Source of the DNA: Tricharina praecox
Taxonomy: Eukaryota
NCBI RefSeq assembly: GCF_024521635.1
Contig: NW_026250417.1
Span: 248,001 to 312,000 of the forward strand
Direction: 5' to 3'
DNA: 64,000 nt
Below, in pieces: positions 8,386-57,558 of the stretch; the stretch's first letter is position 1, and every line of letters begins with the position of its first letter. The notes beneath the pieces were generated by a model that was given only the letters and a program-made list of their open reading frames with translations, had not been told where the DNA came from and made no database searches. The translations under genes were made by a program, and so were the position numbers.

Positions 8386-10874
8386 TTTCTCTCTGTCTCT
8401 CTCTCGATCCATGCGAAGCTGGAGAGGAGATTGGGTGCTGATTTTTCAATTTTTTCTTCCACCTCCTCGGAGGAGGAGGAGTCACTCGGTCGGACCTCCT
8501 GGCCCTGTTCCTGGCCCTGTCCCTTCGGACGGACTGGGTGTTGCGGCGGCGGCGGAAGCGGATGCGTGTGTGAGTGGCGCCGAACCGAAGTCGTGGGCGC
8601 TGGGATTTGACACTGCTAGCGTGAATGCTCCTGCTGCTGGTGGTGTTCCTGCGTCCGCCTGTCTGGGAGGGGAGGTTGGTTGGTTGGTTGGGTTGGTTGG
8701 GTGGTAGAAATCCCGCGGGTGCGCACCCAGGCTACTAGTACCTGTGCATAAGGGGATTGTTGGTGGCCGGGTCAGGCACCGGGTCAGGTACCGGGAAGGG
8801 GGAGGATACATGTGTATGTAGGCTCGTGCACCGTCAGACGGGCGTTCCGAGCTCGTCGTCGACTCGTCGCTCGTCGCTCATCGCCCGGACATCGAATCAC
8901 CGGTCCGGTCTGGTCGCTGCCTCCCCTCCAGCCTCCCCGGCTCCCATCCCAGGCTCCCAGCTACCGGAAGAAGTCCGGTACATACGTCGGTTAAATTGCG
9001 ATCGATTGACACCTACATACCTACTCTGCATACATACGGTACCTACTTCGATGCCCTACTCTACTCTATTGTACATGCTGGTCACTGGTGTGCATGGAGG
9101 TGGATCGTGGTAAGCAAGCGGTACACATGCCTGGTAGTTGAGTCGGCCCCCATGCTGTAGCCTGTACGTGCACGTAGTGAATCGAAAGTGTGGCTTTGAC
9201 CGGGGCCCGCATGGCCCACATGGCCTGCCGCCGTCTCCGTCCGACGTGTCCGGCGTGTCCGGCGGTGGGTTGCGGAGAGTCGCGGCCTCGGGGAGCCGCA
9301 GGCCCGCAGCGGAAGCGGCAGTTAACTTAGCGTCTGGAATACCCTGTGGGACAGGAGGAGGATGAAGAGGAGGAGTGATGCCGAGGAGTGAGGCCGAGCA
9401 GTGACGTGGGTTCTAGTTGAGACCGCCACATCGTTGTTGAGCGAGTGATGGCCAGTGCAAACTCTCGTCTCGATTGGAGACTGTGACTGGGCTGGGCTGG
9501 GCTGGGAGCGAGGCGGACCTGCTCCGTACTATTTAGAGTAGAGTAGAGCCCCTCAGGCTCGCGTAGAACATTCACAACTACAATAATGGTGTCTATAGTC
9601 GTGTTACAGTGACGGCATTCGGTGGTGACGAATAAAGATGCAAGAGAGAGATGGGAGCCTGGATGGAAGAAGGTAGCGTTCTGGAATCGGGGGCTTGCGG
9701 TTGGACAGTGGTACTGGTACACTAATGGTTTTTCGGTAGTTATTAGAACACGCGATTTACAGCAGCTTCCCGCACAGGGGGGAGGGGAGGGGGGCAAAAT
9801 GTTGGAAGATTAAGGGACTTTGCTCGACCAACCGAACAGGTATGTCCATTTCACGAACGCACGGCGTAAGGCCTGTGAGGAGTCCGAGTGATGTGCGGAA
9901 GGAGACCACCGACCACCGGTTCAGTTCAGTCCTCGGGATTTCCAAATCAGCCACAGGGTGGGGTGGTAAAGTTTCTCGGGGGTGTTTTTCGGAGCTGTCT
10001 TTCCCGTAACATGAAGTTGAATTCTATCTACTCTTTTTATTTGTTTAAGCATCATTGCATTCGACCTTGGTAGGGTAGATCATTGGATTTTATGGTACTC
10101 TGAGCGTTGCACGTTCCGTCACTCGACATACGAATCGCAGGCTAGGATGATATTTCATGATCGGCTGTACCTACTGTGTCTATGGTTGGTGCGGATAATG
10201 AGCGTGGTCATGGCAGGTAGCGGAGTAGGCGGATAGCGTGCGTGATGGGGGGGGGGGTTGTTTGTTCGGTAGGCAGACAATGAGCGTGGTGGGGTGTTTT
10301 GTTTGGTAGGCAGCGGCGCAGCATCGAGCCGAGGCGATAGAGCTTTCTCTCTACCCCGCGGAGCTGGCAGGAAAGGTCGGGAAGTTGGTGGTCGACATAA
10401 TCTAGTAAAGGCCGCATGCGACAATAAATTGATGTCCTCTCTCTGATAGGCTGTACGTCGTCACGGTCGTCTTTCTACCGTTCAGCCTCTGCTCTGCCTG
10501 AAGGGTAAATGAAGTCTCTCTGGCGGAGAGAGATCTGGAAACTGAGTAGCCCTGTAGGACTTCCGGAATCGCAAGACTGTTATTGGTGACGATGCCAGCG
10601 GCGTTCGACCCCCTGAGTGGGTCTTTGCCGTGAGCTATGGTACATATGATGGCTACAAAATCTCATCGCTGCCCCGATAAATCACACGACAGCTAACAAG
10701 GATGAATGCAAGCTATGAAGTTGGGGACCATGAATATTCCTCCCCACTGCGATGTCTTGGGTTTACTCACAGTATGTACAACCCATACACCACGCCACAC
10801 TCCTTCATACCATCATCCTTCGCCACCTTGGCCTCACTGAGCACCCAAGTAACCGACGAAAAACCAGAAGCAAA

Positions 10875-11000
10875 CAAAAATTGCGATGCCGAAAGACCCT
10901 AAGATCATTCGCAGGGACTCGATTCTCGCAGTGCAATGAGAACCTTATCTCTGGAGCTTTGCTGATGGTTGAGCCAGCGAAGTCGCATCAAAGTAAGTAT
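10875..11000 (-). ncRNA. U1: U1 snRNA-like copy 1 (subtype B; 5' arm variant AUACUUACUUUG)
   Basis: 5' arm, AUUGCAC loop and AAUUUUUG Sm site; upstream TATAA; coordinates run from +1 to the Sm site. Confidence 0.8.
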
Positions 11001-11193
11001 GAAGAAGAAAAGAAAAGAGGAGGAAGAAGGCGCGGGGACGGGGTATTATAGTTGTTCCAGTGGGGTCGATTTTGGCCGACGGGAAGTAGCTAGCTAGGGT
11101 TTTGACCGAGTGACACGCAGTGTAGCCAAGCTAGTCAGCAGAAAACACCTTTAAAACTCCCCTTCCCCCGCCCATCATTTCCTTTTCTTCTTC

Positions 11194-11320
11194 ATACTTA
11201 CCTTGATGCGACTTTTCTGGCTCAAACAGCAGCAAAGCTCCAGAGACACCCCCTCATTGCACAGCGAGGGTAGCGTGTCTCCGCAAAAGGTCTTCGGGCC
11301 TTTCGGCGTCGCAATTTTTG
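11194..11320 (+). ncRNA. U1: U1 snRNA-like copy 2 (subtype A)
   Basis: ATACTTACCTTGATGCG...CCCTCATTGCACAGCGAGGG...GTCTTCGGGC...GCGTCGCAATTTTTG; TATA degenerate (TTTAAAA). Confidence 0.85.
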
Positions 11321-12836
11321 ATTTCTTCCTCTGCTTTGATGAGATGAAGGTGTTTTCGTTGATGGTGCTGGGCCCTCTCTCCTTAGGAGGCCGAGACGTC
11401 AAAGAAAACATGTTACATCGGTGGGGACTCCCTCTTGCCCCCAAGACAGCCTACGGGTCACGGCAATATTGCTGTCTTTCATGCTTTTTTTCTGTTTCAT
11501 CATTAAGTGCGTGCGACCTTATCTAGTCATGGCAAAGATTATGATGTACACACGCCGTTTCCTTATCCATTTTCCAACCCGACCTCGAACAGTCCGCAGC
11601 AGCCCGTGATGGCTCCTTCGCCTAGGCACCCGGAATACAAAGGAAAAAACAAAAGCTCGGACAAATTCCCCTTCCTCTCCGACCATCCTGTCTCGTCCGG
11701 AGAGGCCATAAGGGGGCGGCATTGAGTCGAACAGAAGCTGAGGCCCCCCCTCCACCACCATATCCCCATCCCTTTCCAGGCTGACAGCGTCTCGCGCTGT
11801 CATCTCCTCTAGCTATTCCTCGTGTTCCCTTTGTGCCCACTCGACAGGGCACCTCACTACTCTACTTTATCATCTTGGTAAGACAGTTGGAAGAGGCAGT
11901 GGTTCGTCAGACCTACTTACCAATACACTTCGGTACTTGGGGAGTATAAATAGAAAACAGAAGCAGGTTTTGATTGCGACCTTTACTTCGTGTGATATCC
12001 CATAGTATTGAGCGCTGAGTGAGCGCGGTGTTGGACCCGACGTGACCAAACGACTTGCTCCCTTATTCACTAGGAAGCCGGTTGCCATTCTGTCTCATTG
12101 CTCAGGGGGCAGTATTGAAAACTGTCGGATACATTCTATCTACAAGCTGCTTTTTTTTTGTTTCATCATCGTAGCATTCGACCTTATCAGATCATGGCTG
12201 TATACACTCCGGTTCCACCCCACTGTCTCCGACCGGCGACCGCTGGCCGCGAGCTCGATGTGGGTTCCCTATTGCTCTACGCCCAGCCCATCCGTAGATA
12301 GAAAGAGAGACAGAAAGTAAGAATATCTATAAGACGCCGTTCACTTATATTCCATCACTCGTCATACGGATTGCAGACGATGATGATATTTCATGATCAG
12401 CTGTCGTCACGGTTGTCTTTCCTGCTTTCGCTCAGCCTCCCTGTCTCTACCTGGTCTGCCTGAATGTTGAATGAGGTCTCTCCGGCGTAGGGAGGTTTGG
12501 AAACTCATTAGCAGCCTGCGGAACTTCGGGAATGGCAAGACGGTTGTTCAAGGTGACGATGCTAGCAGGGGGTTCTACACTCGAGTGGGTCCTTACTGTG
12601 AGTTGCATACAGTATGATGGCTATAAAATCACATCGGCTGCCCGGATATGACAGCTGACAGAGACGGGTGCAAGCCATGAAGCTGGGGAGCTTGAATATT
12701 CCTCCCCACTGCGATGTCTTGGGTTTACTCACAGTATGTACAACCCATACACCACGCCACACTCCTTCATACCATCATCCTTCGCCACCTCGGCCTCAAC
12801 TAGCGCCCAAGTAACCGACGGAAAACCAGAAGCAAA

Positions 12837-12962
12837 CAAAAATTGCGATGCCGAAAGACCCTAAGATCATTCGCAGGGACTCGATTCTCGCAGTGCAATG
12901 AGAACCTTATCCCTGGAGCATTACTGCATGTTGAGCCAGCAAAGTCACATCAAGGTAAGTAT
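12837..12962 (-). ncRNA. U1: U1 snRNA-like copy 3 (subtype B)
   Basis: All U1 motifs present; stem I has some mismatches; TATAAAA upstream. Confidence 0.8.
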
Positions 12963-13150
12963 GAAGAAGAAAAGAAGGAGGAGTGGGGAAAGGAGACGGG
13001 GTTTTATAGGTGTTCTAGGGGGTCGATTTCGCCGATAGGAAGTAGCTAGCTAGGGGTTTTAACCGAGTGACACGCAGTGTAGCCAAGCTAGCCAGCAGAA
13101 AACACCTATAAAACCCCCTTTCCCCCACCCACCATTTCCTTTTCTTCTTC

Positions 13151-13277
13151 ATACTTACCTTGATGCGACTTCGCTGGTTCAACTAGCAGCAAAGCTCCAG
13201 AGACACCCCCTCATTGCACAGCGAGAGTCGAGTGTCTCTGCGAAATATCTTCGGATGTTTCGGCGTCGCAATTTTTG
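13151..13277 (+). ncRNA. U1: U1 snRNA-like copy 4 (subtype A)
   Basis: All U1 motifs present; TATAAAA ~45 bp upstream. Confidence 0.85.
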
Positions 13278-14079
13278 ATTTCTTCTGGTTATCCGTCGGT
13301 TACTTGGGTGCTCAGTGAGGCCGAGGTGGCGAAGGATGATGATGGGATCTGCGGCGTGGTGTATGGGTTGTACACACTGTGAGTAAACCCAAGACAGCGC
13401 AGGCACTGTGAAAAGAAATACGGCAAACGTCTATAATGCTATAGTTTTTGGCACTGTGGTCTAAAATGCCATAGTTTTGAACAAAAAAGTCTGAAAACCA
13501 ACCACCGCTCAAACCCACCACCACCCACCATGTAAACCCACTGTCTCGAGCGATGGAAGAGCTGTCGGCGAGAGGAGAAAGTTGAAGAGGACTCCTGTCG
13601 GCCTGGAGTTGGCAAAGAGCCCTCGCAAAACCATCATTACTAAAACACCGTCTACTTGCCAATGCCTCTCTAGACCGGGAAGCGGGTCGACAGCGAGAAC
13701 ACACAAGGGGAGAGATGATATAGATGTTCATCGTCTATTCTGTAGACTATGAGAGAGAAAGAAGAAGAAGAAGTAGACGACGGAGAGGGCAGGCGTCTCG
13801 CTGGCCCCGCTAACGTTGATGTTCACTAAGTACTAACCACATCCGCTTCCTCCCACCGACAAATTATATCGCTGGGACCAGCCGGGGCGACGGGCAAGGG
13901 AAGCCACATGGCCCGCTCGACGAAAGCTGGGTTGGACAGTGGTGTGGAAATGGAGTGTGTAGGGGGCGGATATTGCCATGACCTGCCTTCGGAGCAAGAG
14001 GGAGTCCCCATAGACGTAACGTGTCTTCTTCGACGTCTCGGCCTCCCGAGGAGAGAGCCCAGCACCTTCAACGAAAACG

Positions 14080-14231
14080 CCTCCACCAAAGTGGAGGAAG
14101 ATATCAAAAATTGCGACGCCGAAACATCCGAAGACATTTCGCAGAGACACTCGACCCTCGCTGTGCAATGAGAGGGTGTCTCTAGAGCTTTGCTGATCTT
14201 TGAGCCAGCAAAGTCGCATCAAGGTAAGTAT
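14080..14231 (-). ncRNA. U1: U1 snRNA-like copy 5 (subtype A, intact 3' hairpin)
   Basis: All motifs plus a post-Sm hairpin CCUCCAC-UUUG-GUGGAGG (stem-loop IV equivalent); TATAAAA upstream. Confidence 0.88.
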
Positions 14232-15847
14232 GAAGAGGAAAAGAAAGAGGAGGAAGGGTGGCCGGGGACGGGGGGTTTTATAGGTGATTTTGGAGGGGTC
14301 GATTTCGCCGACGGGAAGTAGCTAGCGCGTAGTTAGGGCTTAGAACTTGAGCCACGTGCGGTTCGGTTGCTTTGTGGGTCCAACCGCCCCCACGCACGCT
14401 TTCTCACTCCAACTCTCTTCTCCTTCCTCCCAATCTCCAACATCAGCATGTGCACTCATCCACCTCAGCAGATGGTTCACCGTGCCTACCGTGGCCCTTG
14501 TTCTCCCCTCAGGTGAATTGACCCGCAGGACTGATGACTCCGAATCCTCGCGGCCGTGAGTCGTGACTGACTCTCTCCGTTTTGAGGGCATTAGGTGTCG
14601 GGAATCGCCACGTTCACGAGCCGGGAGGGTATATAATCATGGTAAAAGACAGCTGGAGGAGGCAGTGGTTCGTCAGACCCACTTATGTAGGTACACACTT
14701 AGGGGGTATAAATGGTAACAGAAACAGTTTTTGATTGGACCTGTAACCTGTATGTATACTTCGTCTCATCGTGTGATGCAGTATCCCGTGGTGTTGGATC
14801 CGAGGTGGTGGACCAACTACTTGCTCCCTATTCACTGGGAAACTGGTTGCAGTTCTGCATCGCAACATTGCGTAGGGGGTAGTATTGACACCTGTTGGAT
14901 AAGATGTATCTATCTACACCCATTTCTGCCAACCAAGATTTCGGCCTTGCAATTCCGAGCCGAGTGACAGGCTATGTCTACGAAATCGCATCGGGTGCCC
15001 TGGTACGACAGCTGACATGGACGGATGCAAGCCATGAAGTTGGGGACCTTGAATATTTCTCTACACTGCTTTGTCTTGGGTTCACTCGTAGAATGTACCA
15101 GGAACAGCCAATAAGCCGTGCCTCACCACCATTACGAATTATAAGCGCAAGGTGAGGCACCACTAACCCTTACACCCGAGTATCTACATGAAGAAAGTTA
15201 CGTCGCCACAGCCTGGCCAACTCAAAAGCCAGGGCGCGTAATGTGGAAAAAGCATGACACGCAATGGCTATTCGCAATGGACATTCGCAATGGCATACGC
15301 AACGGTCATACACAATGAGGGAAGAGAAAGCTCGGGATTTGGAAGACAGGTGTCTTTCTAGATAGCTCTGTATCTCTTGTTCGCTGTATATAAACCGTCT
15401 ATGTTGTCCGCTCTTTTTCTTTCTGAACCAAGTAGTCAGTCAATTCAATTTCTTGTTTCCCTCTCTCTCTACCTTCCATTGAGCGGCCTATTTGTGGATC
15501 GGGACGATTGGAGGGATGAGTTGTTGTTTAGGCGGGCGAACGATTGATTGATGATGGTGATGATGGTGATGATCTTGGTCTTGGTACAGATAGAAGGTAA
15601 ACAAGAGAGTCCCCCCTCCCCACCACTAGCCTGGAAACCGCTTACAAACAGATGTAACGCTCCACACCGTCCGTACGATCATACTTCCGCACCGCCCATC
15701 GACACTACATACCTCATACCTCATACAGCCAATACACCACACCACCGATCCTTCCTCTGTATAATACCATCATCCTTCGCCACCTCGGTCTCACTGAGCG
15801 CCCAAGTAACCGACGGAAAACGCCTTCATCAAAAAGAAGGAAGAAAT

Positions 15848-15975
15848 CAAAAATTGTGTTGCCGAAAGATCCGAAGATCATTCGCAGGGACTTGTGATTC
15901 TCGATGTGCAATGAGAACCTTATCCCTAGAGCTTTGCTGATTGTTGAGCCAGTAAAGTCGCATCAAGGTAAGTAT
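15848..15975 (-). ncRNA. U1: U1 snRNA-like copy 6 (subtype B)
   Basis: 5' arm, AUUGCAC loop, Sm site; TATAAAA upstream. Confidence 0.8.
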
Positions 15976-16064
15976 GAAGAAGAAAAGAAAAGAGGAGGAC
16001 GGAGGGGCGGGGAAGGGGGTTTTATAGGTGTTCTAGGGGAGTCAATTTCGCCGATTACCTACGT

Positions 16065-16412
16065 AGGGGCCTAGGGCTTGGAACTTGGAGCTTGAGAGCA
16101 GACGAGAAAGGAATCGAAGCTGGCCGGCCGACTTGCGAGCCGCGGGGTTGTCGGCTGCCAGCTTGCACAGCTGCTGTGTGTGGGACCCAGCGGAAACGAC
16201 GCCTTGGCGCGTCGTTTCAACCCGGAGCTGCGGACCTGGGTGAGACCGATGGCCAAGGAGTTGTGAACGGACTGGGGCTCGTTGAGACCAGCTCGGTTTG
16301 GAGTGTGACCGAGGGCGGAGAGGTTTGTTGTCATTCGGTTTGAGAGCGGGTCCTGTCTGAGCTGGGAGCGGGCATGGGAGATGCACGAGCGGCGAAATTT
16401 CGCCGACCTGGC
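16065..16412. repeat. ~350-bp module inside the U1 pair spacer; second copy (reverse complement) at ~51551-51890
   Basis: GGAACTTGGAGCTTGAGAGCAGACGAG...GGGAGATGCACGAGCGGCGAAATTTCGCCGACCTG matches the reverse complement of 51551-51890. Confidence 0.85.
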
Positions 16413-16802
16413 TAGACCAGATGTGGTGGGCGAAATGCTCGAGGGGGTCTTTTTTACTTTGTTGGCCGGTTGTTTGTTTTGTCATTGTCCGTCATCATCT
16501 GCGCATTCATATACTCATCTCGCCATTCAACTCGCGGGGTACTTGAGGTTCATCACCTGAAGAGCACAGGTGGCTCTTTTCTTTCATTGTCGTTTCTCTC
16601 TCTAGACAAATACAATCGGTCTTCTATATTATTAAACAAGGTTGTCTGAGGGTCATCACGTCTCCAGTGCTTCACTGCCCAAAGCACTGCCCGCTAATGC
16701 CTCCTCCATTTTGGCCGAGTGACACGTAGTGTAACCAAGCCTCCAGCAGAAAGCGCCTATAAAACCACCCCCTTCTCCGCTCACGGTTTCCTTTTCTTCT
16801 TC

Positions 16803-16928
16803 ATCTCACTGCATGCGGCTTTGCTGGCTCAAGAAGCAACGAAGCTCCAGCGGCAACACCTTCATGGCACAGCGAGGGGCGAGTGTCTCTGCGAAAGGGC
16901 TTCGGGCCTTTCGGCGTCGTAATTTTTG
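16803..16928 (+). pseudogene. U1: U1 snRNA-like copy 7, degenerate
   Basis: 5' arm replaced (ATCTCACTGCATGCGG), U1A loop AUGGCAC; Sm site and stem III retained. Confidence 0.75.
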
Positions 16929-17633
16929 ATTCTTCCTCCTTTTTGATGAAGGCGTTTTCGTTGATGGTGCTGGGCTCTCCTCAGGAGGCCGAGACTTCAA
17001 AGAAGACATGTTACATTGATGGGGACTTTCTCTTGCTCCGAAACTGTTTTTTGTTTACTGATTGATTGCATGCGACTTATCTAGATCATCGAATTATCCG
17101 CCCCGGTCATACATCCTCCCCTTTCCACGTCACTGTCCAGCTCGACTTTCATCGAGCGGCCCGATGTGGCTTCCCCTGCTTCTCCGCCCTGGCTTTTCTC
17201 GAAGATACATGTGAAGGAAATAAAGCTATGAAAAGAAAGGGAGGGAAAGTGGGAGTGGCCCCGGCTCCTCAACCTCGGCGCCCTCATTCTCCTTCTCCTC
17301 ACGCCTCCTCTCCACAATGTACCTATGCGAGGAGTTGGGTGGATTGAGTGGTATTTGGTTCGAGTATGTAGATTCGCATTGTTCAAGCGGGGCTTGGAAT
17401 CCAGCGCAAGGCCAAGCTCTCTCACATGTTATCACCCGCTCTACTCATGGTCCATCACTCCACAGCCCGATTGAATGTGATCTGCAGGGTCCGTTTTCAT
17501 CCCGCTCTTGGCAGCACGCCACAGCCCCTCCATCCACAGTTTTTCCGCGGCCATCCATCGCCACACCTCCGCACTGCAGTCTACCACTTCTCCCACGACC
17601 TCCACGACGACGACGACGCCAACGACCGCAACG

Positions 17634-44763: not shown

Positions 44764-46162
44764 GGCTGCGGTACTGGCTGAATAGGGATGTGTCGGTAAG
44801 GTGGTGTGGACGTGGGTTGGCGATGGAGCTTGGAGCTTGCTGAGTACTGTTCGAGTGGGTAGCCTTGGTGGGGCTTGGTGTGGGGGGAAGCCGCTCCATG
44901 TGGCTGTCGCCTAGTGTAACTGCCAAGTTCATTTTCTGTACTGGACAGGGGAGCTCACTCGCAAACACCTAAAAAATGCGAGTATCGAAACACACCATTA
45001 CTGCCTACTCAAGTGAGCAAGTCCACGTTTCCGTACATAAGTGCTTACTTGCTGAGTTGTTTGTGTAGCGAGTTTATACGAGAATACCCAGGTGGGTAGC
45101 AATCCTGTACATTGACAAGTTTTGGAGCTGTGATCAGCTTACAACGCCCGAATTGATACCCAATTGTAGTATAATTGATAAAAGTAAACCAACAAAAACT
45201 CCCTAAGTACTTGCTTTAAACACCAGCAAATAAACTTATCCTAGGTGTTTCCGGACATTATGGTTGCCGTGGGAAGTCGTGGTTCCGGTAGGCGGTAGTC
45301 CCGAGACCTATGGCTCGACCGATCACGACTATCTGAGAGGGTGGGGCGGGATTGTATACCGAGCTCTACGTGCCTCCTACATCAGCTTCCAGAGAGAAAA
45401 TGACACCACAGGACTTGACGGCGTTATGGACCAACGGGAGCGAAAGGGTCGGACGCACGTCGGTCCCGTCATCAGAGTACGGACGAGCAAAACGACCCTC
45501 TCCTACGGACTAAAGCATGAGGAATAGGCGGAGAAGGGGTCATTGTATTGATGGGTGAATTTAGATGCTTGGTTGCATACGAGAGGGCCAGGCCGTTCGA
45601 GATGAGGTGCATGCATCATGGGGCTGAAGTCACTGCTCATCTCGTAAAGTAGGGTGTATGTAGAGTAGACTGACGAACGTTCGACAGCTTAGGGTTGAAG
45701 GATGGCAGTGTTTGTGCTCTAGACACGTAGTCTAATTCAAGTTTGCCGCGCTGGGTACTCAGGAACGATGACTGGCGGTCGAGAGATCACTGCTCTGATG
45801 AATCCCGGAGGATGAGAGGGCTGCAAAAGGCTCAAGTGAAGTTCTTCATCACCACGATCGAGATGGTATTGCCGTTCGGATTCGTCGGGTTGGGCTCACA
45901 GCGTGTGTGTGGGGTCTCAGCATCAGACACCACCCATCGCGATACGAACGCTTGAAAAACTTGAGCTTCGCTGTCTCTGCCCCGTTGGCGCGTGCGGAAA
46001 GACTAGAGTACATACTCTAGATGACCTGAGCGAGAACTTCATCCGTCTTCAGAGCAAAAGGAAGTCCCCATCGATGTAACGTGTCTTCTTCGACGTCTCA
46101 GCCTCCTGTGGAGAGCCCAGCACCATCAACGAAAACGCCTTCATCAAAAAGGAGGAATAAAT

Positions 46163-46288
46163 CAAAAATTGCGACGCCGAAAGGCCCGAAGACCTTTCGC
46201 GGAGACACGCTACCCTCGCTGTGCAATGGGGGTGTTGCCTCCGGAGCTCGCTGATTGTTGAGCCAGCAAGTCGCATCAAGGTAAGTAT
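46163..46288 (-). ncRNA. U1: U1 snRNA-like copy 8 (solo, subtype A)
   Basis: All U1 motifs; its own upstream TATATAAA and a different upstream sequence; family 3' tail extends to ~46050. Confidence 0.85.
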
Positions 46289-48876: not shown

Positions 48877-49553
48877 ACCAAGGTTAATCTAGATGACCTC
48901 AATGAAGTGCCTTTGATGAAGCCTGAACAGGCATGCAGTAAGATTTTGGCAGCCTGAAGATAGAACGTATCACTCAAAACTCATCCATCGTGGTCACTCA
49001 CCATGCATATCGCTGGTGGGTTTCGCCGTTGTGTCTCATGCGCGACTGGCGCCGCTCTAGATCGTCCGCGCTAGTAGCCCTGTAGATTCCCAGGCGGCCT
49101 TGCCTACTGCCCATAAGCACTTCATCAATCAGTCACGTAGATACATGAATACATTTGTGGGTAAGCCCGTGGACACACATACAGTACTCACTTCATGTAA
49201 AGTGCGCGAGCAGAAGGGATAGTTCTGAGCAAGAACAAAAGCCCACGCAAACTTATATGGTGTGCTTAACCGCCAGAAAATCCCCGAAATGGAGGAGGAG
49301 GAGGAGGAGACATCCATCCTACAATAGTACCTGACTACATCTGGCACAGAGCTGTGAGAGTGATCCTACTCCTGGAGCAGGTCGATAACTATAGCTGCCC
49401 ACAACAGCAGCAGCAGCAACAACACCATCCCATCCCACCCCCCCACCGCCCGCCATCTTCCCCAAGAATTTCCTTCGAAGCCTCGACTTCCCAAAGGAGT
49501 ATCCAAGTATCGACGCAGATCCCCAACTCCCCATCGTTTCCGTGGCGAGCAAT

Positions 49554-49680
49554 CAAAAATTGTAACGCCGAAACATCCAAAGAGATTTCGCAGAGACACG
49601 CGACCCTCGCTGTGCAATGAGGGGGTGTCTCTGGAGCTCTGCTGCTGTTTGAGCCAGCAAAATCACGTCAAGGTAAGTAT
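49554..49680 (-). ncRNA. U1: U1 snRNA-like copy 9 (subtype A, truncated just after the Sm site)
   Basis: 5' arm, AUUGCAC loop, Sm site; half of the spacer present upstream. Confidence 0.75.
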
Positions 49681-50069
49681 GAAGAAGAAAAGGAAACTGG
49701 GTGGGGGGAAGGGGCGTTTTATAGGTGTTCTGGCTGGAGGGCTTGGCGGCACAACGTGTCACTCGGTCAAGACGGAGGGGGCACTAGCGGGTAGTGCTTG
49801 AAAGACAGCTTTTGCAGCAGGCAGCGGCACAGCAACGGGCCATGGTGGTAGAGCTTTCTCTCGACCTGCGAAGCTGGCAGGAAGGTCGGGAAGTTGGTGG
49901 TCGCCATGGTCTAGTAAGACAGCAATATTGCCATGATCTGTCTTTGGAGCAAGAGGGAACACCCATTCCCCCTCTATGTAGCGTGTTTTCCTCGACGTCT
50001 CAGCCTCCTGTGGAAAGCCCAGCAGCATCAACGAAAACGCATTCACCAATTCAAAGCGGAGGAAGAAAT

Positions 50070-50196
50070 CAAAAATTGCGACGCCGAAACATCCGAAGAC
50101 ATTTCGCAGAGACACTCAACCCTCGCTGTGCAATGAGGGGGTGTCTCTGGAGCTTTGCTGATTGTTGAGCCAGCAAAGTCGCATCAAGGTAAGTAT
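50070..50196 (-). ncRNA. U1: U1 snRNA-like copy 10 (subtype A)
   Basis: All motifs; clean stems I-III; TATAAAA upstream. Confidence 0.88.
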
Positions 50197-50385
50197 GAAG
50201 AAGAAAAGAAAATTTAGTGGGGGGAAGGGACGTTTTATAGGAGTTCTAGGGGGTCGATTTCGCCGACGGAAAGTAGCTACATAGCTAGGGTTTTTGACCG
50301 AGTGACACGCAGTGTCGCCAAGCTAGCCAGCAGCTAACGCCTATAAAACCCCCCTTCCCCCCACCCACCTTTCCTTTTCTTCTTC

Positions 50386-50511
50386 ATACTTACCTTGATG
50401 CGACTTTGCTGGCTCAATAATCAGCAAAGCTCCAGGGATAAGGTTCTCATTGCACAGCGAGAATCGAGTCCCTGCGAATGATCTTAGGGTCTTTCGGCAT
50501 CGCAATTTTTG
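50386..50511 (+). ncRNA. U1: U1 snRNA-like copy 11 (subtype B)
   Basis: ATACTTACCTTGATGC...CAGGGATAAGGTTCTCATTGCACAGCGAGAATCGAGTCCCTG...GCATCGCAATTTTTG; TATAAAA at 50342. Confidence 0.88.
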
Positions 50512-50641
50512 TTTGCTTCTGCGTTTTCCGTCGGTCACTTGGGCGCTCAGTGAGGCCGAGGTGGCGAAGGATGATGATAGGATCTACGGCGTGGTGTATG
50601 GGTTGTTCACACTGTGAGTAAACCCTAGACAGCGCAAGCAC

Positions 50642-51200: not shown

Positions 51201-51358
51201 GGAGGTGTATGCCCGGGGCGGATATTGCCATGACCCAACTTCGGAGCACGAGGGAGTCCCCATCGATGTACGTAACATGTCTTCTTCGAAGTCTCGGCCT
51301 CCTGAGGAGAGCCCAGCACCATCAACGAAAACGCCTTCATCAAAAAGGAGGAAGAAGC

Positions 51359-51482
51359 CAAAAATTATGACGCCGAAAGACCCTAAGACCATTCGCAGAG
51401 ACTAGATTCTCGATGTCTAACGAGAACCTTATACCTGAAGCTTTGCTGCTCGTTGAGCCAGCAAAGTCGCATGCATATAGAT
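51359..51482 (-). pseudogene. U1: U1 snRNA-like copy 12, degenerate (subtype B)
   Basis: 5' arm replaced (ATCTATATGCATGCGAC); U1A loop mutated (GUUAGAC); Sm site kept. Confidence 0.72.
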
Positions 51483-51992
51483 GGTGAAGAAGAAAAGGAA
51501 AAGAGGAGGAAGGGCGGGCGGGGACGGGGGATTTTATAGGTGTAGGCTTCCAGGTCGGCGAGATTTCGCCGCTCGTGCATCTCCCATGCCCGCTGCCAGC
51601 TCAGACAGAACCCGCTCTCAAACCGAATGACAACAACCCTCTCCGCCCACGGTCACACCCCGGACCGAGCTGGTCTCAACGAGTCCCACTCTGTTCACAA
51701 CTCCTTGGCCATCGGTCTCACCTGGGTCCGCAGCTCAGAGTTGAAACGACGCGCCAAGGCGTCGTTTCTGCTGGGTCCCACAGCAGCTATGCACAATCCC
51801 GCCGCTCGCAAGTCGGCCGGCCAGCTTCGATTCCTGTCTCGTCTGCTCTCGAGCTCCAAGTTCCAAGTGGCAAGTCCTAAGCCCCTATCTAGCTAGCTAC
51901 CTACTTTCTGTCGGCCAAAATCGACCCCCCCGGAACAGCTATAAAACCCCCCATCCCCGCCCGTCCTTCCTCCTCTTTTCCTTTTCTTCTTC

Positions 51993-52119
51993 ATACTTAC
52001 CTTGATGCGACTTTGCTGGCTCAAACAGCAGCAAAGCTCCAGAGACACCCCCTCATTGCACAGCGAGGGAAGCGTGTCTCTGCGAAATGTCTTCGGATGT
52101 TTCGGCGTCGCAATTTTTG
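51993..52119 (+). ncRNA. U1: U1 snRNA-like copy 13 (subtype A)
   Basis: All motifs; TATAAAA upstream. Confidence 0.87.
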
Positions 52120-52899
52120 ATTTCTTCCTCCGCTTTGAATTGGTGAAAGCGTTTTCGTTGATGGTGCTGGGCTCTCTCTTCTCGGGAGGCCGAGACGTCG
52201 AAGAAAACATGCCACACATCGATGGGGACACTCCCTCTTACTCTTTCCACCCGGCTGTCCCTGACCGCTGGCCGCGAGCTCGATGCCGGCTCCCTATTGC
52301 TCTCCGCCCAGCTCTCCCCGAGCGTCAACCTTCCCTGCTCGCTCCCCGCTCAACTCAAAAGAATGAATGAACGAAAGTATTCGTCAGTCAAACTCTCGCC
52401 CCGTCCAACTTCCTGTGAGCTCGATTACGAAATCTAGTTCCTCGTCCCTGCCGCCGTGTTCTCTATATACTCCACCGGCCGGCCGTCTCCTCGCCCGTCC
52501 TGTATCCTCTTTCTCGCCCTGGCTCTTACTGCGTCCCAGTCCATCGAGCTGCCTGTAGCCTGGGTGACCCGGCTGGGAGGGATGGGAAGGAAGAGGGGAC
52601 GAAGGCTCTCGGCGGCCTGTCTCCTTTCTTCCGCTCTCGCCACTCTTTCTACCGCTGCGGCTCTTGCTCCTTCTCTATGTGAGGACCGCCGTCGCCGCTG
52701 CTATGTCCGAGGTTTGGCTCGGGGTTTCTGGTCCGTCTTCTGGTCCCAGGGGGGGTACCCTTCTGCGACCCACGTCCGTGCTGTCGAGGAAACCGAGGAC
52801 AGCCGTAGTACAGTATTGGTTCGCGAGGAGATCCTCGATCTTGAATCTCCCCCCCCCCCCCCTCCCTTCCCCCACCCATCGTTTCCTTTCTTCTTCATA

Positions 52900-55766
52900 C
52901 CCTTGTAAAACAAGGGGGAGTTTTTTAAATAGTGGAGCGACTGTTGTGCCATGATTTTTTTTTCAAACCCGTAGGAAAAGTAAATACCACATCGTGATAG
53001 TTGGGAATTATACACATGTCAAATTATTGACCTATAAAAGCCACTCAAAACATTGTACATTCCGTGTTAGATTTACAGACGTGTTGCAAGTTTTTAACGG
53101 AGGGAGTGGATATACAGTTCACAGACTTTTCCCGTGAAAATTGGAAGCCGTAGTACAAGTGATCCCGATTATAGAGAGTTAAATGACCGGCAATTAGACA
53201 TATTTAAAGAATTACTTCGAGTTTTTTTTCAATATGTTGCAAATCTCTCCTATGTAGTTAAAATAAAGCGTTAAAGTGCATTAAAACGTTGCAGCATCGT
53301 TTTCTTGGAATTTTTGAACCATTTTTGAACCATTTTTGAACTGTTGAAACTTGGGAGCAAGAGTGCAACGTGTGAATATCAGAGATGAATCGGGACGCTT
53401 AGCCTTGAAACTAGGCTCGGGTTTCCTCGCTTATGCAGTATTTTTTCACATTGGTCTTGAAGCACTAAGCACATATGGATTTATATTCTACTATATATTA
53501 CTACCTACGGGGCCAACAGGCAGTATCCAGAGCGGGCCGGCAGGCTGGCACATACTGCTGCTAGCCCTGCTGCCACTGACCCTCGACTTGCTGGATCCAT
53601 TGTGGTGGAGAGATGGAGGGGCTGTCGGCGGGAGGAATGGTTGCGCCGAGATGAGGGGTTGTGTCGAGGGGAGGGTTGCGGCGAGGATATAGTTGTGGCT
53701 AGAAAAGATATAAGAGAGAGAAGCTCTTAACGAGAGTAGGAGTTGCGGCGGGAGGAGGGGTTGCGCCGAGAGGAAGGTTGCGCCGAGAGGGGGGGTTGTG
53801 CCGAGAGGAGGGGTTGTGCCGAGAGGAGGGTTGCGGCGAGGATATAGTTGCGGCTAGAAAAGCTATAAGAGAGAGAAGCTATGAGCGAGAGTAGGAGCTA
53901 CGGCGGGAGGAGGAGTTACGCCGAGGGGAAGGGAGAATAGAGTTGTTGCTAGAAAAGCTGTTTGAGAGAGAAGCTATCAGCGAGGGTAGACTCTAGAATT
54001 GCGGCCAGAAGTTGCGGCAAGAATAGAGTTGCGCGGAGAGTACATAGCAGTTGTGGCGAGGGTAGAGATGCAGCAAAGCTAGCTATAAAAGAGAGAAACT
54101 ATCAGCAGGAGTAGAATGGCAGCGGGAGAAGTAGCTATATGAGTAAGGAGATATCAGCGGGAGTAGCAGTAGCAGTAAGGTGGAGGGTGGGGTGGGGGGG
54201 GATCACAGAGGGGCCAGCCGGGCGAGCAGCAGTAGTGAGTGGGGGATATTCACAGCGCAGCCAGTACTGTATACACGTTAGCACGAGGGCAAATTCGAGG
54301 GCAAATCCAGTACTGTAACAACGGTAGCGAGGGGGCATTTCTAGCGAGAGTGCATTTCGTAGGCGATTCCAGCGCTGTATCAGCGGCGGGTCCAGCAGGG
54401 CATGTAGTAGTGGGGAGAGGGAAGGGCAATCACCATGTATTGCGCCGAGAGGAGGGGTTGTGCGGGGAGGAGAGGAGAATAGAGTTGCACCGAAAGTAGA
54501 CTTGCGGCGAGAAAAGCTATGAGAGAGAGAAGCTATCAGCGAGGGTAGATATGCGGCCAGAATAGAGTTGCGCCGAGAGTAGCAGTTGCGGCGGGGGTAG
54601 GAGCTATATCATATGAGCTATCAGTAAGAGTAGTAGTAGCAGTTGCGGCGGGAGTAGCAGTAGCAGGAGGGAGTAGGAGCTATATGAGAAATGAGCTATC
54701 AGTGGGAGTAGCAGTAGTAGTTGCGGCGCGAGTAGGAGCTATAAGACAGAGGAAGATTAGCGAGAGTAGTAGTTGCAGCACAGAAGGGAGAATAGCAGTT
54801 GTGGCGAGAGTAGAGCCTTGAGAGAAGTGCTATCAGCAGCAGTAGTAGTAGGAGCTATATGAGAGAAGTGCTATTAGCGAAAGTAGTTGCGGCGGGAGGG
54901 GGATAGCAGTTGCGGAGGAAGTAGTAGTTTCAGTGGGAGTAGCAGTTGCGGGGGGGGGGGAATAGCAGTTGCGGTGGGGGAGGGAGTTGCGGTAAGGGGG
55001 GTAATAGCAGTTGCGGTGGGGGGGAATAGCTGGGAGTGGGAATAGCTGGGAGTGGGAATAGCTGGAGGTGGGAATAGCAGTTACGGGGGGGGAGGAGTTG
55101 CGGGGGGAGGAGGAGATGTGGGGGAGGAGGAGTTGTGGGAAAAGAAGAAGAAGAAAAAGAAGAAGAGGCGGACGGCTAAGAGAGCATACGACCCCGCCAT
55201 GCCCGCCATGCCCGCCAACGTTGGTGCCGTCTACTAACCACATTCGTCTTCTCCCACCGACAGGAGTCCTTCACCTCCTCCTGTTGCCGACACCTCCTAC
55301 CACAGCTCCTGAGCCATTTCACGAATTGACTAAGTCATTCCTAGAGTCATCTCGCGGATTGACTCAGTCATTCCTGTTATTACTCCCTCCCGTGGCAGCT
55401 CGCTCATCGCTCCCCACACAGGGAAACAGTGGAAAAATGCCAAGACAACGCTTAAGTGAGCACCAACGATATATCTCGAACTTGTGTTTTTATATTTCCA
55501 CCAGTTCCTGTTTACTTAAGCGTTAGATCAACGTATGACAAATTCTCACATTTTCTGGCTTTTTGCCGAGTTTACAATTTAAAATGGGTGTACTGTCTAT
55601 CATCATATTATTTCCGCATCGTTTTACGTAGCTCACGTTATTCTAGATGCAATAGTTGCGGAATAGTTGGGCAATACCGCGGGGCCGTTTGTGAAATCTA
55701 ATGATCGCGTAACCATTTCCCAACCCACCGCTCACGTTTATAAAACCCCCCTTTTTTTTACAAGGG
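52900..55766. mobile_element. 2.87-kb TIR DNA transposon (TA TSD) inserted in U1 copy 14
   Basis: TIRs CCCTTGTAAAA... / ...TTTTACAAGGG; TA duplicated (52898-99, 55767-68); removing it restores TTCTTCATACTTACCTTG; no intact transposase seen. Confidence 0.9.
53640..55140 (+). repeat. Purine-rich degenerate minisatellite inside the TIR element
   Basis: Recurrent GAGAGAGAAGCTATCAGCGAG and TAGCAGTTGCGG units. Confidence 0.75.
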
Positions 55767-55917
55767 TACTTACCTTGATGCGACTTTGCTGGCTCAACGA
55801 TCAGTAAAGCTCTAGAGACACTCCCTCATTGCACAGCGAGGGTCAAGTGTCGCTGCGAAATGTCTTCGGATGTTTCGGCGGCGCAATTTTTGATATCTTC
55901 CTCCACTTTGGTGGAGG
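55767..55917 (+). ncRNA. U1: U1 snRNA-like copy 14 (subtype A), interrupted at nt 2-3 by the transposon
   Basis: TACTTACCTTG...ATTGCAC...AATTTTTG plus the CCTCCACTTTGGTGGAGG hairpin; its upstream T-tract is left behind at ~52860-52899. Confidence 0.82.
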
Positions 55918-55994
55918 CGTTTTCGTTGATGGCGCTGGGCTCTCTCCTCGGGAGGCCGAGGCGTCGAAGAAAACGTGTCACATCGGTGGGGAAG

Positions 55995-56390: not shown

Positions 56391-56537
56391 GGGCGGATAT
56401 TGCCATGACCCGTCTCCGGAGCAAGAGGAGTCCCCATTCCCCATCGATGTAACATGCCTTCTTCGACATCTCAGCCTCCCGATGAGAGAGAGCCCAGCAC
56501 CATAAACGAAAACCTTCATCAAAGGGGAGGAAGAAAT

Positions 56538-56664
56538 CAAAAATTGCGACGCCGAAACATCCGAAGACATTTCGCAAAGACATGCTTCCCTCGCTGTGCA
56601 ATGAGGGGGTGTCTCTGGAGCTTTGCTGCGGTTTGAGCCAGCAAAGTCGCATCAAGGTAAGTAT
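56538..56664 (-). ncRNA. U1: U1 snRNA-like copy 15 (subtype A)
   Basis: All motifs; TATA degenerate (TACAAAA). Confidence 0.82.
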
Positions 56665-57470: not shown

Positions 57471-57558
57471 CATAACGTGTCTTCCTCGACGTCTCGGCCT
57501 CCCGAGGAGAGAGAGCCCAGCAGCATCAACGAAAACTTCACCAAAGCGGGTAAGAAAT

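Follow-up and report, generated by a model that had tools for sequence, protein, structure and literature searches.

Head-to-head U1 genes in a fungal genomic window are probably driven by two separable promoters that abut in a compact divergent spacer

U1 genes that lie head to head with only ~190 bp between their 5' ends raise the question of whether one bidirectional promoter drives both members of a pair, or whether each gene carries a promoter of its own. We addressed this question in the window, a 64,000-nucleotide stretch of DNA whose host looks like a Pezizomycetes-like ascomycete and which contains 18 U1-like genes, 10 of them in tight head-to-head pairs.

A search of the window with the Rfam U1 model (RF00003) returned 18 matches with E <= 0.045, 16 of which had E <= 4.5e-05, and blastn with three copies as queries recovered the identical 18 segments and nothing further. 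The copy set is defined by this E-value search and lies below the gathering score: no copy in the window reached the 69.5-bit gathering threshold, the top score being 62.1 bits. Single-copy orthologues in related loci scored 49-52 bits (47-52 with copy 8 included), and because they likewise fall below gathering, the low scores look like a trait of the fungal lineage and not of the duplicates. The U1 5' end ATACTTACCTT occurred 16 times in the window at no more than one mismatch (14 exact) against a chance expectation of 0.54, a count reached in none of 100 shuffles. The 5' splice-site recognition sequence (AUACUUACCU) reads exactly ATACTTACCTT in 14 of the 18 copies, has one mismatch in two, and is absent from copies 7 and 12. 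The stem-loop II loop AUUGCAC (CATTGCAC) was found in 16 copies and the Sm site AAUUUUUG (AATTTTTG) in all 18. Over positions 46000-58200, matching soil metatranscriptome contigs were limited to ones of 31 letters at 52846-52878 and a single partial one at 57382-57424, none of them on a U1 copy; the three soil runs, all of one study, contain almost none of the sequence words of this stretch, and the result is uninformative on expression either way.

The copies and the intervals between paired copies are given here, with A, A' and B for the gene types and alpha and beta for the two predicted promoter halves.

10842..11000, minus strand: U1 copy 1, type B (Rfam 51.7 bits, E 5.4e-10; 5' end ATACTTACTTT, C9 to T)
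11194..11353, plus strand: U1 copy 2, type A (38.7 bits, E 2.9e-06)
12806..12962, minus strand: U1 copy 3, type B (61.9 bits)
12963..13150, no strand: spacer of pair 3/4, 188 bp; beta left, alpha right; TATA consensus on both sides
13151..13309, plus strand: U1 copy 4, chimera of an A-type body and a B-type 3' tail (47.7 bits)
14079..14231, minus strand: U1 copy 5, type A, unpaired, with only a beta promoter (53.9 bits)
15822..15975, minus strand: U1 copy 6, B-type stem-loop II and A-type SL4, beta promoter (50.9 bits); two base pairs of helix H broken
15976..16800, no strand: interval of wide pair 6/7, 825 bp; beta half, 436-bp module common with copy 13, alpha half of copy 7
16801..16955, plus strand: U1 copy 7, A-like, 5' splice-site recognition sequence gone (24.2 bits, E 0.045)
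46134..46288, minus strand: U1 copy 8, type A', unpaired, putative ancestral syntenic gene (47.3 bits)
49533..49680, minus strand: U1 copy 9, type A, unpaired, with only an alpha promoter (57.2 bits)
50041..50196, minus strand: U1 copy 10, type A, beta side (51.6 bits)
50197..50385, no strand: spacer of pair 10/11, 189 bp; TATA consensus on both sides
50386..50543, plus strand: U1 copy 11, type B, alpha side (62.1 bits, highest score of the window)
51331..51484, minus strand: U1 copy 12, B-like, 5' end gone (25.2 bits, E 0.023)
51485..51992, no strand: interval of wide pair 12/13, 508 bp; beta-type half on each side
51993..52150, plus strand: U1 copy 13, type A, beta promoter (51.7 bits)
55766..55918, plus strand: U1 copy 14, type A, begins GTAC (39.2 bits); promoter with no homology to those of the other copies, 65% pyrimidine, TATA at -27
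56533..56664, minus strand: U1 copy 15, type A, beta side, deviant TATA (TACAAAA) (43.0 bits)
56665..56859, no strand: spacer of pair 15/16, 195 bp
56860..57009, plus strand: U1 copy 16, type A', alpha side, deviant TATA (TAAAAAA) (34.6 bits); groups with copy 8 in the tree
57537..57685, minus strand: U1 copy 17, type A, beta side (48.1 bits)
57686..57874, no strand: spacer of pair 17/18, 189 bp; TATA consensus on both sides
57875..58032, plus strand: U1 copy 18, type B, alpha side, (GCTT)n run within the 3' tail (48.7 bits)

The first-pass annotation had described five pairs with 188-195 bp between their 5' ends, and our measurements agree (1/2, 193 bp; 3/4, 188 bp; 10/11, 189 bp; 15/16, 195 bp; 17/18, 189 bp; 5' ends were located by homology, and we infer start sites, polymerase and activity for all copies). 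TATA boxes of the same tight pair are 96-100 bp apart. The outward-facing arms reported earlier, each with a TATA box, a C-tract and a T-tract, were also recovered as inverted sequences of 40-44 nt, 70-81% complementary and 86-109 nt apart. In each tight spacer, an asymmetric ~87-bp core lies between two inverted arms of ~50 bp, each made of TATA, a variable C-tract and an invariant T-tract; the core that had been quoted is a fair consensus, found in all five tight spacers with minor differences and indels. The interval first cited for pair 1/2, 10875-11320, cuts into both genes, and the true span is 10842-11353. In the five pairs, the divergent start sites as placed by homology are less than 1 kb apart, within the distance used to define bidirectional promoters. 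The spacer of pair 1/2 is organised as follows.

11001..11193, no strand: spacer of pair 1/2, 193 bp, aligned with the four remaining tight spacers
11001..11014, minus strand: T-tract immediately upstream of copy 1 (GAAGAAGAAAAGAA on the plus strand), mean identity 94-96% over five pairs
11044..11051, minus strand: TATA-like box of copy 1 (CTATAATA on the gene strand), departing from TATA[AT]A[AT]
11062..11097, minus strand: beta distal element of copy 1 (GGGGTCGATTTTGGCCGACGGGAAGTAGCTAGCTA on the plus strand), mean identity 82% over five pairs
11098..11143, plus strand: alpha distal element of copy 2 (GGGTTTTGACCGAGTGACACGCAGTGTAGCCAAGCTAGTCAGCAG), mean identity 87%; GCCAAG at -69, GTGAC at -84, both also in copy 8 and the former in its orthologues too
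11149..11156, plus strand: TATA-like box of copy 2 (CTTTAAAA), deviant
11157..11193, plus strand: pyrimidine tract of copy 2 (C-tract then CTTTTCTTCTTC), reaching the U1 5' end, 92% pyrimidine

A truly shared promoter, in which the ~87-bp core is one unit driving both TATA arms, would make co-expression obligatory, and pairing would yield A and B together. The near-constant spacer length and TATA-to-TATA distance speak for such a unit, as does the conservation of the entire core (mean pairwise identity of 85% across the five tight pairs). However, comparison of the two sides indicates that the core is not one shared element and is made of two unrelated halves, alpha and beta. Over the proximal 50 bp the two sides resemble each other, with a score reached by none of 2000 shuffles; when the distal 50 bp were compared, 1885 of 2000 shuffles scored at least equally well. 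Alpha is marked by GCCAAG at -69 and GAGTGAC at -84, and beta by TCGGCGAAATCGAC at -70 to -82. A TCGGC[CG]AAA motif lies at -70 to -82 in all eight intact beta-side copies, and GCCAAG at -67 to -69 in alpha copies 2, 4, 9, 11, 16 and 18. Because the distal halves are unrelated, we rejected the idea that the pairs arose when one gene and its promoter were duplicated as a palindrome.

Furthermore, each half is associated with one gene only, and single halves exist outside the tight pairs: copies 5, 13, 6 and 12 keep beta, and copies 7 and 9 keep alpha. Lone halves stand before the intact copies 5, 9 and 13, and alpha-like motifs precede the unpaired copy 8 and its orthologues, which argues against a shared unit. 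GCCAAG occupies -68/-69 in copy 8 and in its orthologues at loci L001, L004 and L005, despite a TATA box ~10 bp further upstream there, and alpha appears to have been inherited from the ancestral single-copy U1 promoter. Nor is alpha or beta linked to gene type, since the beta side is B in pairs 1/2 and 3/4 and A in pairs 10/11, 15/16 and 17/18; promoter half, long or short arm, and type A or B occur in varied combinations among the copies.

Our typing confirmed the earlier observation that six of the seven pairs are A+B; the exception, 15/16, is A+A' and counts against a unit dedicated to producing both types. In favour of such a unit, all six B-type copies have an A-like copy as head-to-head partner, leaving no B-type copy unpaired (P = 0.024 under random type labels, a value that is not a probability of independent events, as the copies are related by duplication). 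Two further features of the core point in the same direction. At -105 to -112 of tight-pair beta-side genes, a second TCGG[CT][CG]AAA motif lies within the alpha half, but only in copies 1, 10 and 15, that is, in three of the five tight pairs. Given this motif and a weak similarity to the same stretch upstream of beta copies 5, 6 and 13, an overlap or sharing of ~20 bp between the halves is conceivable. In addition, of three spacers examined, two (3/4 and 17/18) have their alpha element flanked by a 10-bp inverted repeat, GCTAGCTAGG / CCNAGCTAGC. On balance, we regard the shared unit as unlikely. Of the shared bidirectional Pol II promoter originally proposed, the bidirectional geometry stands and a Pol II TATA promoter is plausible, but the core consists of two unrelated halves that also occur alone.

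The promoter elements themselves are widespread, as TATA[AT]A[AT] was found in 14 of the 18 copies and a pyrimidine content of 84-95% at -37 to -1 in 17. Plant snRNA genes carry an upstream element (USE, RTCCCACATCG) ~70 bp upstream, and metazoan ones a downstream 3' box (GTTTN0-3AAARNNAGA). The plant element had no match in the window, including upstream of the 18 copies, and the 3' box had none in the window; the metazoan PSE has no consensus that can be used across phyla. In a filamentous ascomycete, a TATA box followed by a pyrimidine-rich region ahead of the start site works as a core promoter (PMC9703631, partial text), and the U1 copies follow this filamentous-fungal order, with the pyrimidine-rich tract extending to the start.

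We consider it probable, with some reservation, that two complete and separable TATA/pyrimidine-tract Pol II promoters abut in a compact divergent region, and that the U1 genes are a lineage-specific expansion, with a cassette formed once and then reshuffled. A tight pair would consist of two complete U1 transcription units head to head, each with its own ~95-bp promoter. Transcription of each gene would start at the A of ATAC, preceded by a tract of 84-95% pyrimidine that closes with the near-invariant CTTTTCTTCTTC; the TATA box lies at about -44 to -38, and a single distal element completes the promoter. The alpha and beta promoters would abut with hardly any other DNA between them, which would give the 188-195 bp between start sites and the 96-100 bp between TATA boxes. 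Pol II with TBP would fire outward from both TATA boxes, and the spacer would act as one compact divergent promoter region, probably a single nucleosome-free region, in which the distal elements are modular and sharing is not required. The alpha/beta junction would have arisen once, after which the cassette would have been duplicated within and between clusters and reshuffled by recombination or gene conversion in the inverted arms and in the 5' part that the U1 genes have in common.

The proposal that a divergent two-gene cassette is the unit of amplification survives in part. The five tight pairs are homologous end to end (78-86% over 470-854 bp) and have an identical alpha/beta junction in all five cases; since they share this junction, the cassette was probably formed once, then duplicated and reshuffled. 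However, it is not rigid, because halves, arms and types have recombined. The two wide pairs, 6/7 and 12/13, are indeed head to head (825 and 508 bp apart), but they are not the expanded tight spacers they had been taken for: 12/13 is beta/beta, and a separate 436-bp module lies upstream of both copy 6 and copy 13. Each wide pair includes a copy without the U1 5' end (7 or 12). We found no RIP signature among the copies, with a ts/tv of 0.85-1.47 and neither a transition excess nor a dinucleotide signature.

To place the expansion, we scanned metagenomes with the first 21 nt of U1 and found six loci with one U1 apiece; these relatives are metagenome contigs, in which repeats assemble poorly, and one U1 per locus is not a whole-genome count. 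Copy 8 is orthologous to the U1 of L001, L004 and L005, with flanking genes conserved, and L004 is without cluster 2 between the same flanking genes. Apart from U1, loci L002, L003 and L006 showed no synteny with the window. For a flanking MRI1 exon, the named homologues that match best come from Pezizales (Sphaerosporella brunnea, 78%). All 18 copies are confined to two local clusters. As part of the reading that we favour overall, and with the same guarded confidence, copy 8 would represent the single ancestral U1 gene, expanded to 18 copies in this lineage only. The tree gave no resolution for the node of the A/B split before or after divergence from the relatives.

We then compared the predicted folds of 21 sequences, with copies 7 and 12 and locus L006 excluded. 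In the four-way junction (helix H and stem-loops I-III), 91.6% of 751 cells were paired, compared to 38-51% with slid partners. Both sides had changed in 9 of 36 pairs, amounting to 33 cells, a cell count reached by none of 500 shuffles. Between A and B, compensatory differences keep stems II and III paired. By this comparison, A/A' and B are two structurally distinct, correctly folding isoforms.

These folds bear on the reading that most copies are dead duplicates, with functional U1 coming from copy 8 and perhaps a few others, and with the similarity of pairs reflecting age and gene conversion. Every copy scores under the Rfam gathering threshold, copies 7 and 12 lack a 5' end, copy 14 lacks the common promoter and copy 6 has a broken helix H. 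Deviant TATA boxes affect 4 of the 10 tight-pair promoters, those of copies 1, 2, 15 and 16, which are both sides of two pairs, and copy 1 has an altered 5' splice-site recognition base; for these two reasons, decay may be under way in some pairs. Copies 4 and 6, as chimeras, point to ongoing exchange, and for the relatives the one U1 found per locus suffices. However, copy 8 and its orthologues score below gathering as well, the top scores belong to the paired copies 11 and 3, and the compensatory changes between A and B preserve the pairing of stems II and III.

Conservation along the cassette also disfavours dead duplicates. Cassettes have diverged by 14-22% overall, and the T-tract is nonetheless 94-96% identical. 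Among the tight spacers, this block and the alpha (87%), beta (82%) and TATA (74-86%) blocks alternate with a C-tract of 46-74% identity; the common 5' part of the gene is 86-90% identical, a level close to that of the core, and flank identity among cassettes drops to 34-50% past ~90 nt after the Sm site. The spacer is therefore better conserved than its surroundings, the first-pass annotation having named the opposite outcome as fatal to its proposal (core 85%, against 46-74% in the C-tract and 34-50% in the flanks). Because the fast-changing C-tract sits between conserved blocks, this pattern fits better with selection than with simple homogenisation. We thus view widespread death of the copies as improbable, somewhat more so than a shared promoter.

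A bolder reading would have the fungus make two U1 snRNPs, A and B, which differ in compensated stem-loops II/III and in the 3' end and are co-produced by a 190-bp cassette with an invertible core. Since the cassette arms are inverted repeats, the core could flip: recombination between the arms would turn the asymmetric core and swap the alpha and beta drive of the isoforms, and this would account for beta driving B in cluster 1 and A in cluster 2. We give this reading little credence; if true, the spacer would be a promoter module, serving two isoforms of a splicing RNA, that can be inverted over evolutionary time or even somatically. A foldback- or MITE-like mobile element, in which a ~600-bp cassette with long inverted arms transposes with U1 as a passenger, would fit the inverted-repeat structure, the non-homologous surroundings of the cassettes and the fall in similarity to 34-50% past ~90 nt after the Sm site, but it is very improbable, given that the four cluster ORFs tested contain no transposase or other Pfam domain (0 families, against housekeeping families in 5 of 16 other window ORFs), that the ends of homology fade instead of being sharp and match the stretch 3' of the ancestral gene that is conserved in other species, and that all copies lie within two local clusters.

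To our knowledge, the fungi studied so far have one U1 gene each; it is SNR19 in budding yeast and snu1 in fission yeast. Older work exists on snRNA gene arrangements in chicken, plants and nematodes. Our literature search, which had most subscription journals outside its reach, returned no head-to-head U1 pairs or U1 families in Pezizomycetes or other filamentous fungi. Fungal divergent histone pairs (H2A-H2B, H3-H4) are conserved head-to-head arrangements of related genes with a short common control region; their pairing is ancient and thought to balance output, and shared upstream activating elements have been demonstrated experimentally. In contrast, the U1 halves look separable and the pairing recent.

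Close in organisation are the Arabidopsis U1-U4 clusters, two-gene snRNA cassettes with an intergenic region of 180-300 nt, duplicated to seven clusters, whose non-clustered U1/U4 copies are explained by individual duplication or loss (PMC545797, partial text). The U1 pairs resemble them in their short intergenic region and repeated duplication, but the Arabidopsis clusters are tandem, with U1 upstream of U4, combine different snRNAs and use USE and TATA, whereas here both genes are U1 and divergent. Drosophila and human U1 variant families likewise include multiple U1 genes with sequence variants, whose expression and functional differences are in question there as here, and their abstracts make no mention of head-to-head U1 pairs (PMC10645366, PMC8457000, PMC4291461). 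Those animal genes rely on PSE/SNAPc-type promoters and a 3' box, in contrast to the fungal TATA/pyrimidine-tract promoter predicted here. In the bidirectional xylP/axs5 intergenic region, mutation of the TATA box left 8% of activity and replacement of the pyrimidine-rich region 22% (PMC9703631, partial text). The arms described here have the same order of TATA, pyrimidine tract and start, although xylP/axs5 serves protein-coding genes over hundreds of bp with XlnR activator sites, and the U1 spacer serves two small-RNA genes within 190 bp.

A divergent small-RNA companion upstream is also found in trypanosomatids, where small-RNA genes rely on a tRNA gene ~70-100 bp away whose internal A/B boxes are the promoter for Pol III (PMC2784804, partial text). 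Unlike that system, unpaired copies exist here, each gene has its own TATA box, and the companion is not a tRNA (ARAGORN found none). Finally, C. elegans inverted-repeat pairs kept by gene conversion are divergent homologous genes that stay similar (PMC1803023, abstract), but those repeats are long and nearly perfect, whereas the U1 arms are 70-81% complementary and the genes usually of different types. The layout of the U1 pairs is unusual for a fungus, yet a variation on known gene-family layouts.

If the copies are silent, the window records an ordinary local gene-family expansion followed by decay. Otherwise, a filamentous ascomycete with at least 18 U1 genes and two correctly folding isoforms would be a simple system in which to study distinct roles of U1 variants, and how a Pol II small-RNA promoter works in fungi without the animal and plant snRNA promoter elements. 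The window would serve as a natural experiment, with U1 genes behind alpha, beta, both or the ancestral promoter, beside orthologues in related species, and it maps candidate elements to single motifs: GCCAAG at -69, GAGTGAC at -84, TCGGCGAAATCGAC, the TATA box and the CTTTTCTTCTTC tract. The 190-bp spacer would also be a candidate for a compact dual promoter with which to express small RNAs in fungi.

No Rfam family matched the window at gathering thresholds. An E-value search of the whole window gave 18 U1 (RF00003) matches, spread over both strands; E-values were between 5e-13 and 4.5e-05 for 16 of them, and the other two were weak. A blastn search with three copies as queries returned the identical 18 segments and no fragments, and the U1 5' end, ATACTTACCTT, occurred 16 times with at most one mismatch versus 0.54 expected. 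Numbered in window order, these matches are copies 1 to 18 of the first-pass annotation. None of them reaches the Rfam gathering score; since the single-copy U1 genes of related organisms (49-52 bits) also fall below it, low scores look like a property of the lineage. In a fold alignment of 16 window copies (all but 7 and 12) and five from related loci (L006 excluded), helix H and stem-loops I-III were kept in 91.6% of cells versus 38-51% with slid partners, and 9 of 36 base pairs showed changes on both sides. By sequence and predicted fold, the window copies are U1 genes.

Copies 1-7 form a first cluster (10.8-17.0 kb) and copies 9-18 a second (49.5-58.0 kb), with copy 8 isolated outside both at 46.1 kb. 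Ten copies lie in tight head-to-head pairs, four in wide pairs and four (5, 8, 9 and 14) have no partner. The 188-195 bp initially claimed between the 5' ends of tight pairs proved exact: 193 bp (1/2), 188 bp (3/4), 189 bp (10/11), 195 bp (15/16) and 189 bp (17/18). The wide pairs are separated by 825 bp (6/7) and 508 bp (12/13). Local tandem and dispersed repeats unrelated to U1 (75-90% identity) occupy 53610-54735, between copies 13 and 14. We also observed that, in three soil metatranscriptome runs, numerous contigs of 31 letters match 52846-52878 at 90-95% with high word depth, probably because an abundant sequence of some other organism has this short stretch in common. Within 46000-58200, no contig of these runs matched a U1 copy.

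Stem-loops II and III and the 3' end distinguish three U1 types.

Types of U1 copies in the window
Type A: copies 2, 4, 5, 9, 10, 13, 14, 15, 17
Type A': copies 8, 16
Type B: copies 1, 3, 6, 11, 18
5' end lost: copy 7 (A-like), copy 12 (B-like)

Most of the changes that separate A from B are compensatory (stem II, CG to UA twice; stem III, GC to UG or AU). Copies 4 and 6 are A/B chimeras, direct evidence that isoform genes exchange sequence. Copy 4 has a type A body and a type B 3' tail (at 13278-13377); copy 6 combines a type B stem-loop II, a short type A SL4 and a type B 3' hairpin (at 15748-15847). Copies 7 and 12 lack the splice-site recognition sequence and carry similar replacement 5' ends (16801-16817, +, and 51468-51484, -), TCATCTCACTGCATGCG and CCATCTATATGCATGCG versus the usual ATACTTACCTTGATGCG. 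They group together in the tree (support 98/95), and their variant 5' end may have a common origin rather than reflect two independent decays.

The five tight cassettes (pair plus spacer) align end to end. Outward from each gene, the spacer consists of a T-tract, a C-rich tract and a TATA block, which together form an arm, followed by a distal block that differs between the two sides and is named beta on the left and alpha on the right.

Spacer blocks in the five tight pairs (mean pairwise identity)
T-tract, CTTTTCTTCTTC: near-invariant, 94-96%
C-rich tract, variable in sequence and length: 46% left side, 74% right side
TATA block, ACACCTATAAAAC: 74-86%
Left distal block, beta, GGGGTCGATTTCGCCGACGGAAAGTAGCTAGCTA: 82%
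Right distal block, alpha, GGGTTTTGACCGAGTGACACGCAGTGTCGCCAAGCTAGCCAGCAG: 87%
For comparison, common first 49 nt of the gene: 86-90%

That a fast-changing C-tract is sandwiched by blocks that hardly vary suggests selection acting on the latter, and no RIP signature was found. Beyond the cassette, likeness runs through a conserved 3' hairpin to about 90 nt past the Sm site (77-84% within type); further out, the flanks are only 34-50% similar. The spacer core is much better kept than these outer flanks, and this comparison does not refute the first-pass reading of a conserved spacer. The two arms of a spacer form an inverted repeat (40-44 nt, 70-81% complementary). With each side read toward its gene, the proximal 50 bp clearly resemble each other (none of 2000 shuffles matched the score), and the distal 50 bp show no such likeness (1885 of 2000 shuffles equalled or exceeded the score). 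TATA-to-TATA distances are 96-100 bp in the four pairs in which both boxes fit the pattern.

The first-pass annotation had proposed a shared bidirectional promoter. The compact divergent geometry agrees with this proposal, but the two halves are unrelated and each is kept alone outside tight pairs: beta with its own arm by copies 5, 6, 12 and 13, and alpha by copies 7 and 9. Upstream of the single block, copies outside tight pairs carry other kinds of sequence. Each tight pair probably holds two promoters, not a single one, and a factor site may yet serve both genes. The wide pairs, first read as expanded 190-bp spacers, are instead different juxtapositions, because 12/13 is beta/beta and one 436-bp module lies upstream of both copy 6 and copy 13. 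This module (15976-16411 and 51550-51992, 83% alike) contains a perfect 10-bp inverted repeat, GAAACGACGC...GCGTCGTTTC, and has no Rfam match at E <= 10.

The alpha motif GCCAAG lies at -67 to -69 from the U1 5' end in copies 2, 4, 9, 11, 16 and 18. It recurs at -68/-69 upstream of copy 8 and at L001, L004 and L005, three U1 loci in metagenome contigs of related organisms, where the TATA box is about 10 bp further upstream. Furthermore, alpha retains GAGTGACACGCAGTG of a GTGAC-N5-GTGAC repeat conserved in the orthologues. With the motif and repeat remnant in common, alpha has the look of an ancestral U1 promoter in compacted form. The beta motif TCGGC[CG]AAA occurs at -70 to -82 in copies 1, 3, 5, 6, 10, 13, 15 and 17, and a similar motif at about -100 in the distant loci L002, L003 and L006. 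In three of the five tight pairs, the alpha half contains a second beta-type motif (-105 to -112 relative to the beta-side gene), so some sharing of elements between the halves is possible.

The alpha/beta junction is identical in all five tight pairs, suggesting a single origin of the pair. In 1/2 and 3/4, beta precedes type B, and in 10/11, 15/16 and 17/18 it precedes type A; alpha, opposite to beta, precedes type A in 1/2 and 3/4 and type B or A' in the other three (B in copies 11 and 18, A' in copy 16). The long proximal arm (with CCTTCCTCCTC) accompanies beta in copies 1, 3, 5, 6, 12 and 13, and the short arm accompanies alpha everywhere and beta in copies 10, 15 and 17. The cassette modules evidently recombine. 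Each of the six B-like copies has an A-like copy opposite it (P = 0.024 with random labels, a descriptive value only as the copies are not independent). A tree of the gene plus 3' hairpin placed the A' copies 8 and 16 with the orthologues (99/99) and type B within the A copies, as a clade on a long branch (100/99), without resolution at the node dating the A/B split against speciation.

The flanking housekeeping genes are eukaryotic (HlyIII/adiponectin-receptor-like, HCNGP, proteasome subunit, TUG-UBL protein, Thoc5 and methylthioribose-1-phosphate isomerase). For the isomerase exon, every one of the top named homologues belongs to the Pezizales (Sphaerosporella brunnea 78%, Ascodesmis 75%, Trichophaea 75%, Wilcoxina 74%, Geopyxis 73%), which points to a Pezizomycetes-like ascomycete host. 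Scanning metagenome contigs with the first 21 nt of the window U1 revealed six loci with one U1 each. Three of them, L001, L004 and L005, are orthologues of the locus around copy 8, with TUG, HCNGP and proteasome genes in common (76-88% DNA identity), which identifies copy 8 as the ancestral gene. The HlyIII-to-proteasome gap spans 7.5 kb without U1 in L004 and 12.6 kb with cluster 2 in the window, showing that at least cluster 2 was added in this lineage. Between the conserved segments on the HlyIII and proteasome sides, 5.5 kb of L004 (3321-8840) has no detectable similarity to the window, where the counterpart (48923-60324) measures 11.4 kb including cluster 2; on this comparison the interval varies in both genomes. 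The loci L002 (U1 at 791-942, -), L003 (5111-5259, +) and L006 (482-630, -) are not syntenic with the window and carry a third, more distant U1 type in another context. Its stem-loops I and II differ, and its upstream region has TCGGCCAAA near -100 and CCCAAG near -83.

About 30-90 nt past the Sm site, each U1 copy is followed by a long imperfect hairpin (for example 46063-46130, -, and 50540-50600, +), as are the U1 genes of L001, L004 and L005. The hairpin reads GTTTTCGTTGATG...GGAGGCCGAGACGTCGAAGAA in types A and A', has another sequence with the same shape in type B, and hardly differs from copy 8 to the orthologues of other species. It may act as a signal for 3'-end processing (RNase III-type stem) or be a long terminal stem-loop that the mature RNA retains. 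In copy 18, a (GCTT)4-like microsatellite (58001-58025) replaces the usual sequence right after the Sm site.

The sequence architecture, the conservation pattern and the relation to the ancestral promoter are shown here. As far as is known, U1 is made by Pol II in every organism examined, and the Sm site has a T5 run that would stop Pol III. Neither the plant USE nor the animal 3' box was found in the window. A core promoter of TATA box plus pyrimidine-rich region was reported from mutation in a filamentous ascomycete (PMC9703631). From these points we infer that Pol II would transcribe each U1 gene from its own TATA box, pass the pyrimidine tract (84-95% pyrimidine in 17 of 18 copies) and start at the A of ATAC. 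In a tight pair, two promoters of about 95 bp would abut, and by its geometry the 190-bp spacer would be a divergent promoter region, probably forming a single nucleosome-free region that hosts two initiation complexes.

Not all copies appear equally sound. Helix H is broken in copy 6, copy 1 has a C9-to-T change, TATA boxes deviate in copies 1, 2, 15 and 16 (both sides of pairs 1/2 and 15/16), and copy 14 has a foreign promoter. Copies 1, 2, 6, 7, 12, 14, 15 and 16 are probably impaired, and pairs 3/4, 10/11 and 17/18 look intact on both sides. Copy 14 (55766-55918, +) starts with GTAC, not ATAC, has unrelated upstream sequence with TATAAAA only 27 bp from the gene, and seems to have been separated from its promoter by a rearrangement.

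In function, the closest parallel is offered by the divergent histone pairs of fungi. Seven two-gene U1-U4 snRNA clusters, duplicated several times, are reported in Arabidopsis; they are tandem with 180-300 nt between genes (PMC545797), whereas the window pairs are head to head. U1 variant families are reported in animals (PMC10645366, PMC8457000, PMC4291461). Trypanosomatid small-RNA genes are described with a divergent upstream companion tRNA whose internal boxes form the Pol III promoter (PMC2784804), a model that does not fit here because no tRNA genes were found in the window and unpaired copies exist. Within the incomplete literature searched, we found no description of head-to-head U1 pairs or of U1 families in filamentous fungi. 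As read from its sequence, the locus is a lineage-specific fungal U1 family, amplified largely as a divergent two-gene cassette.
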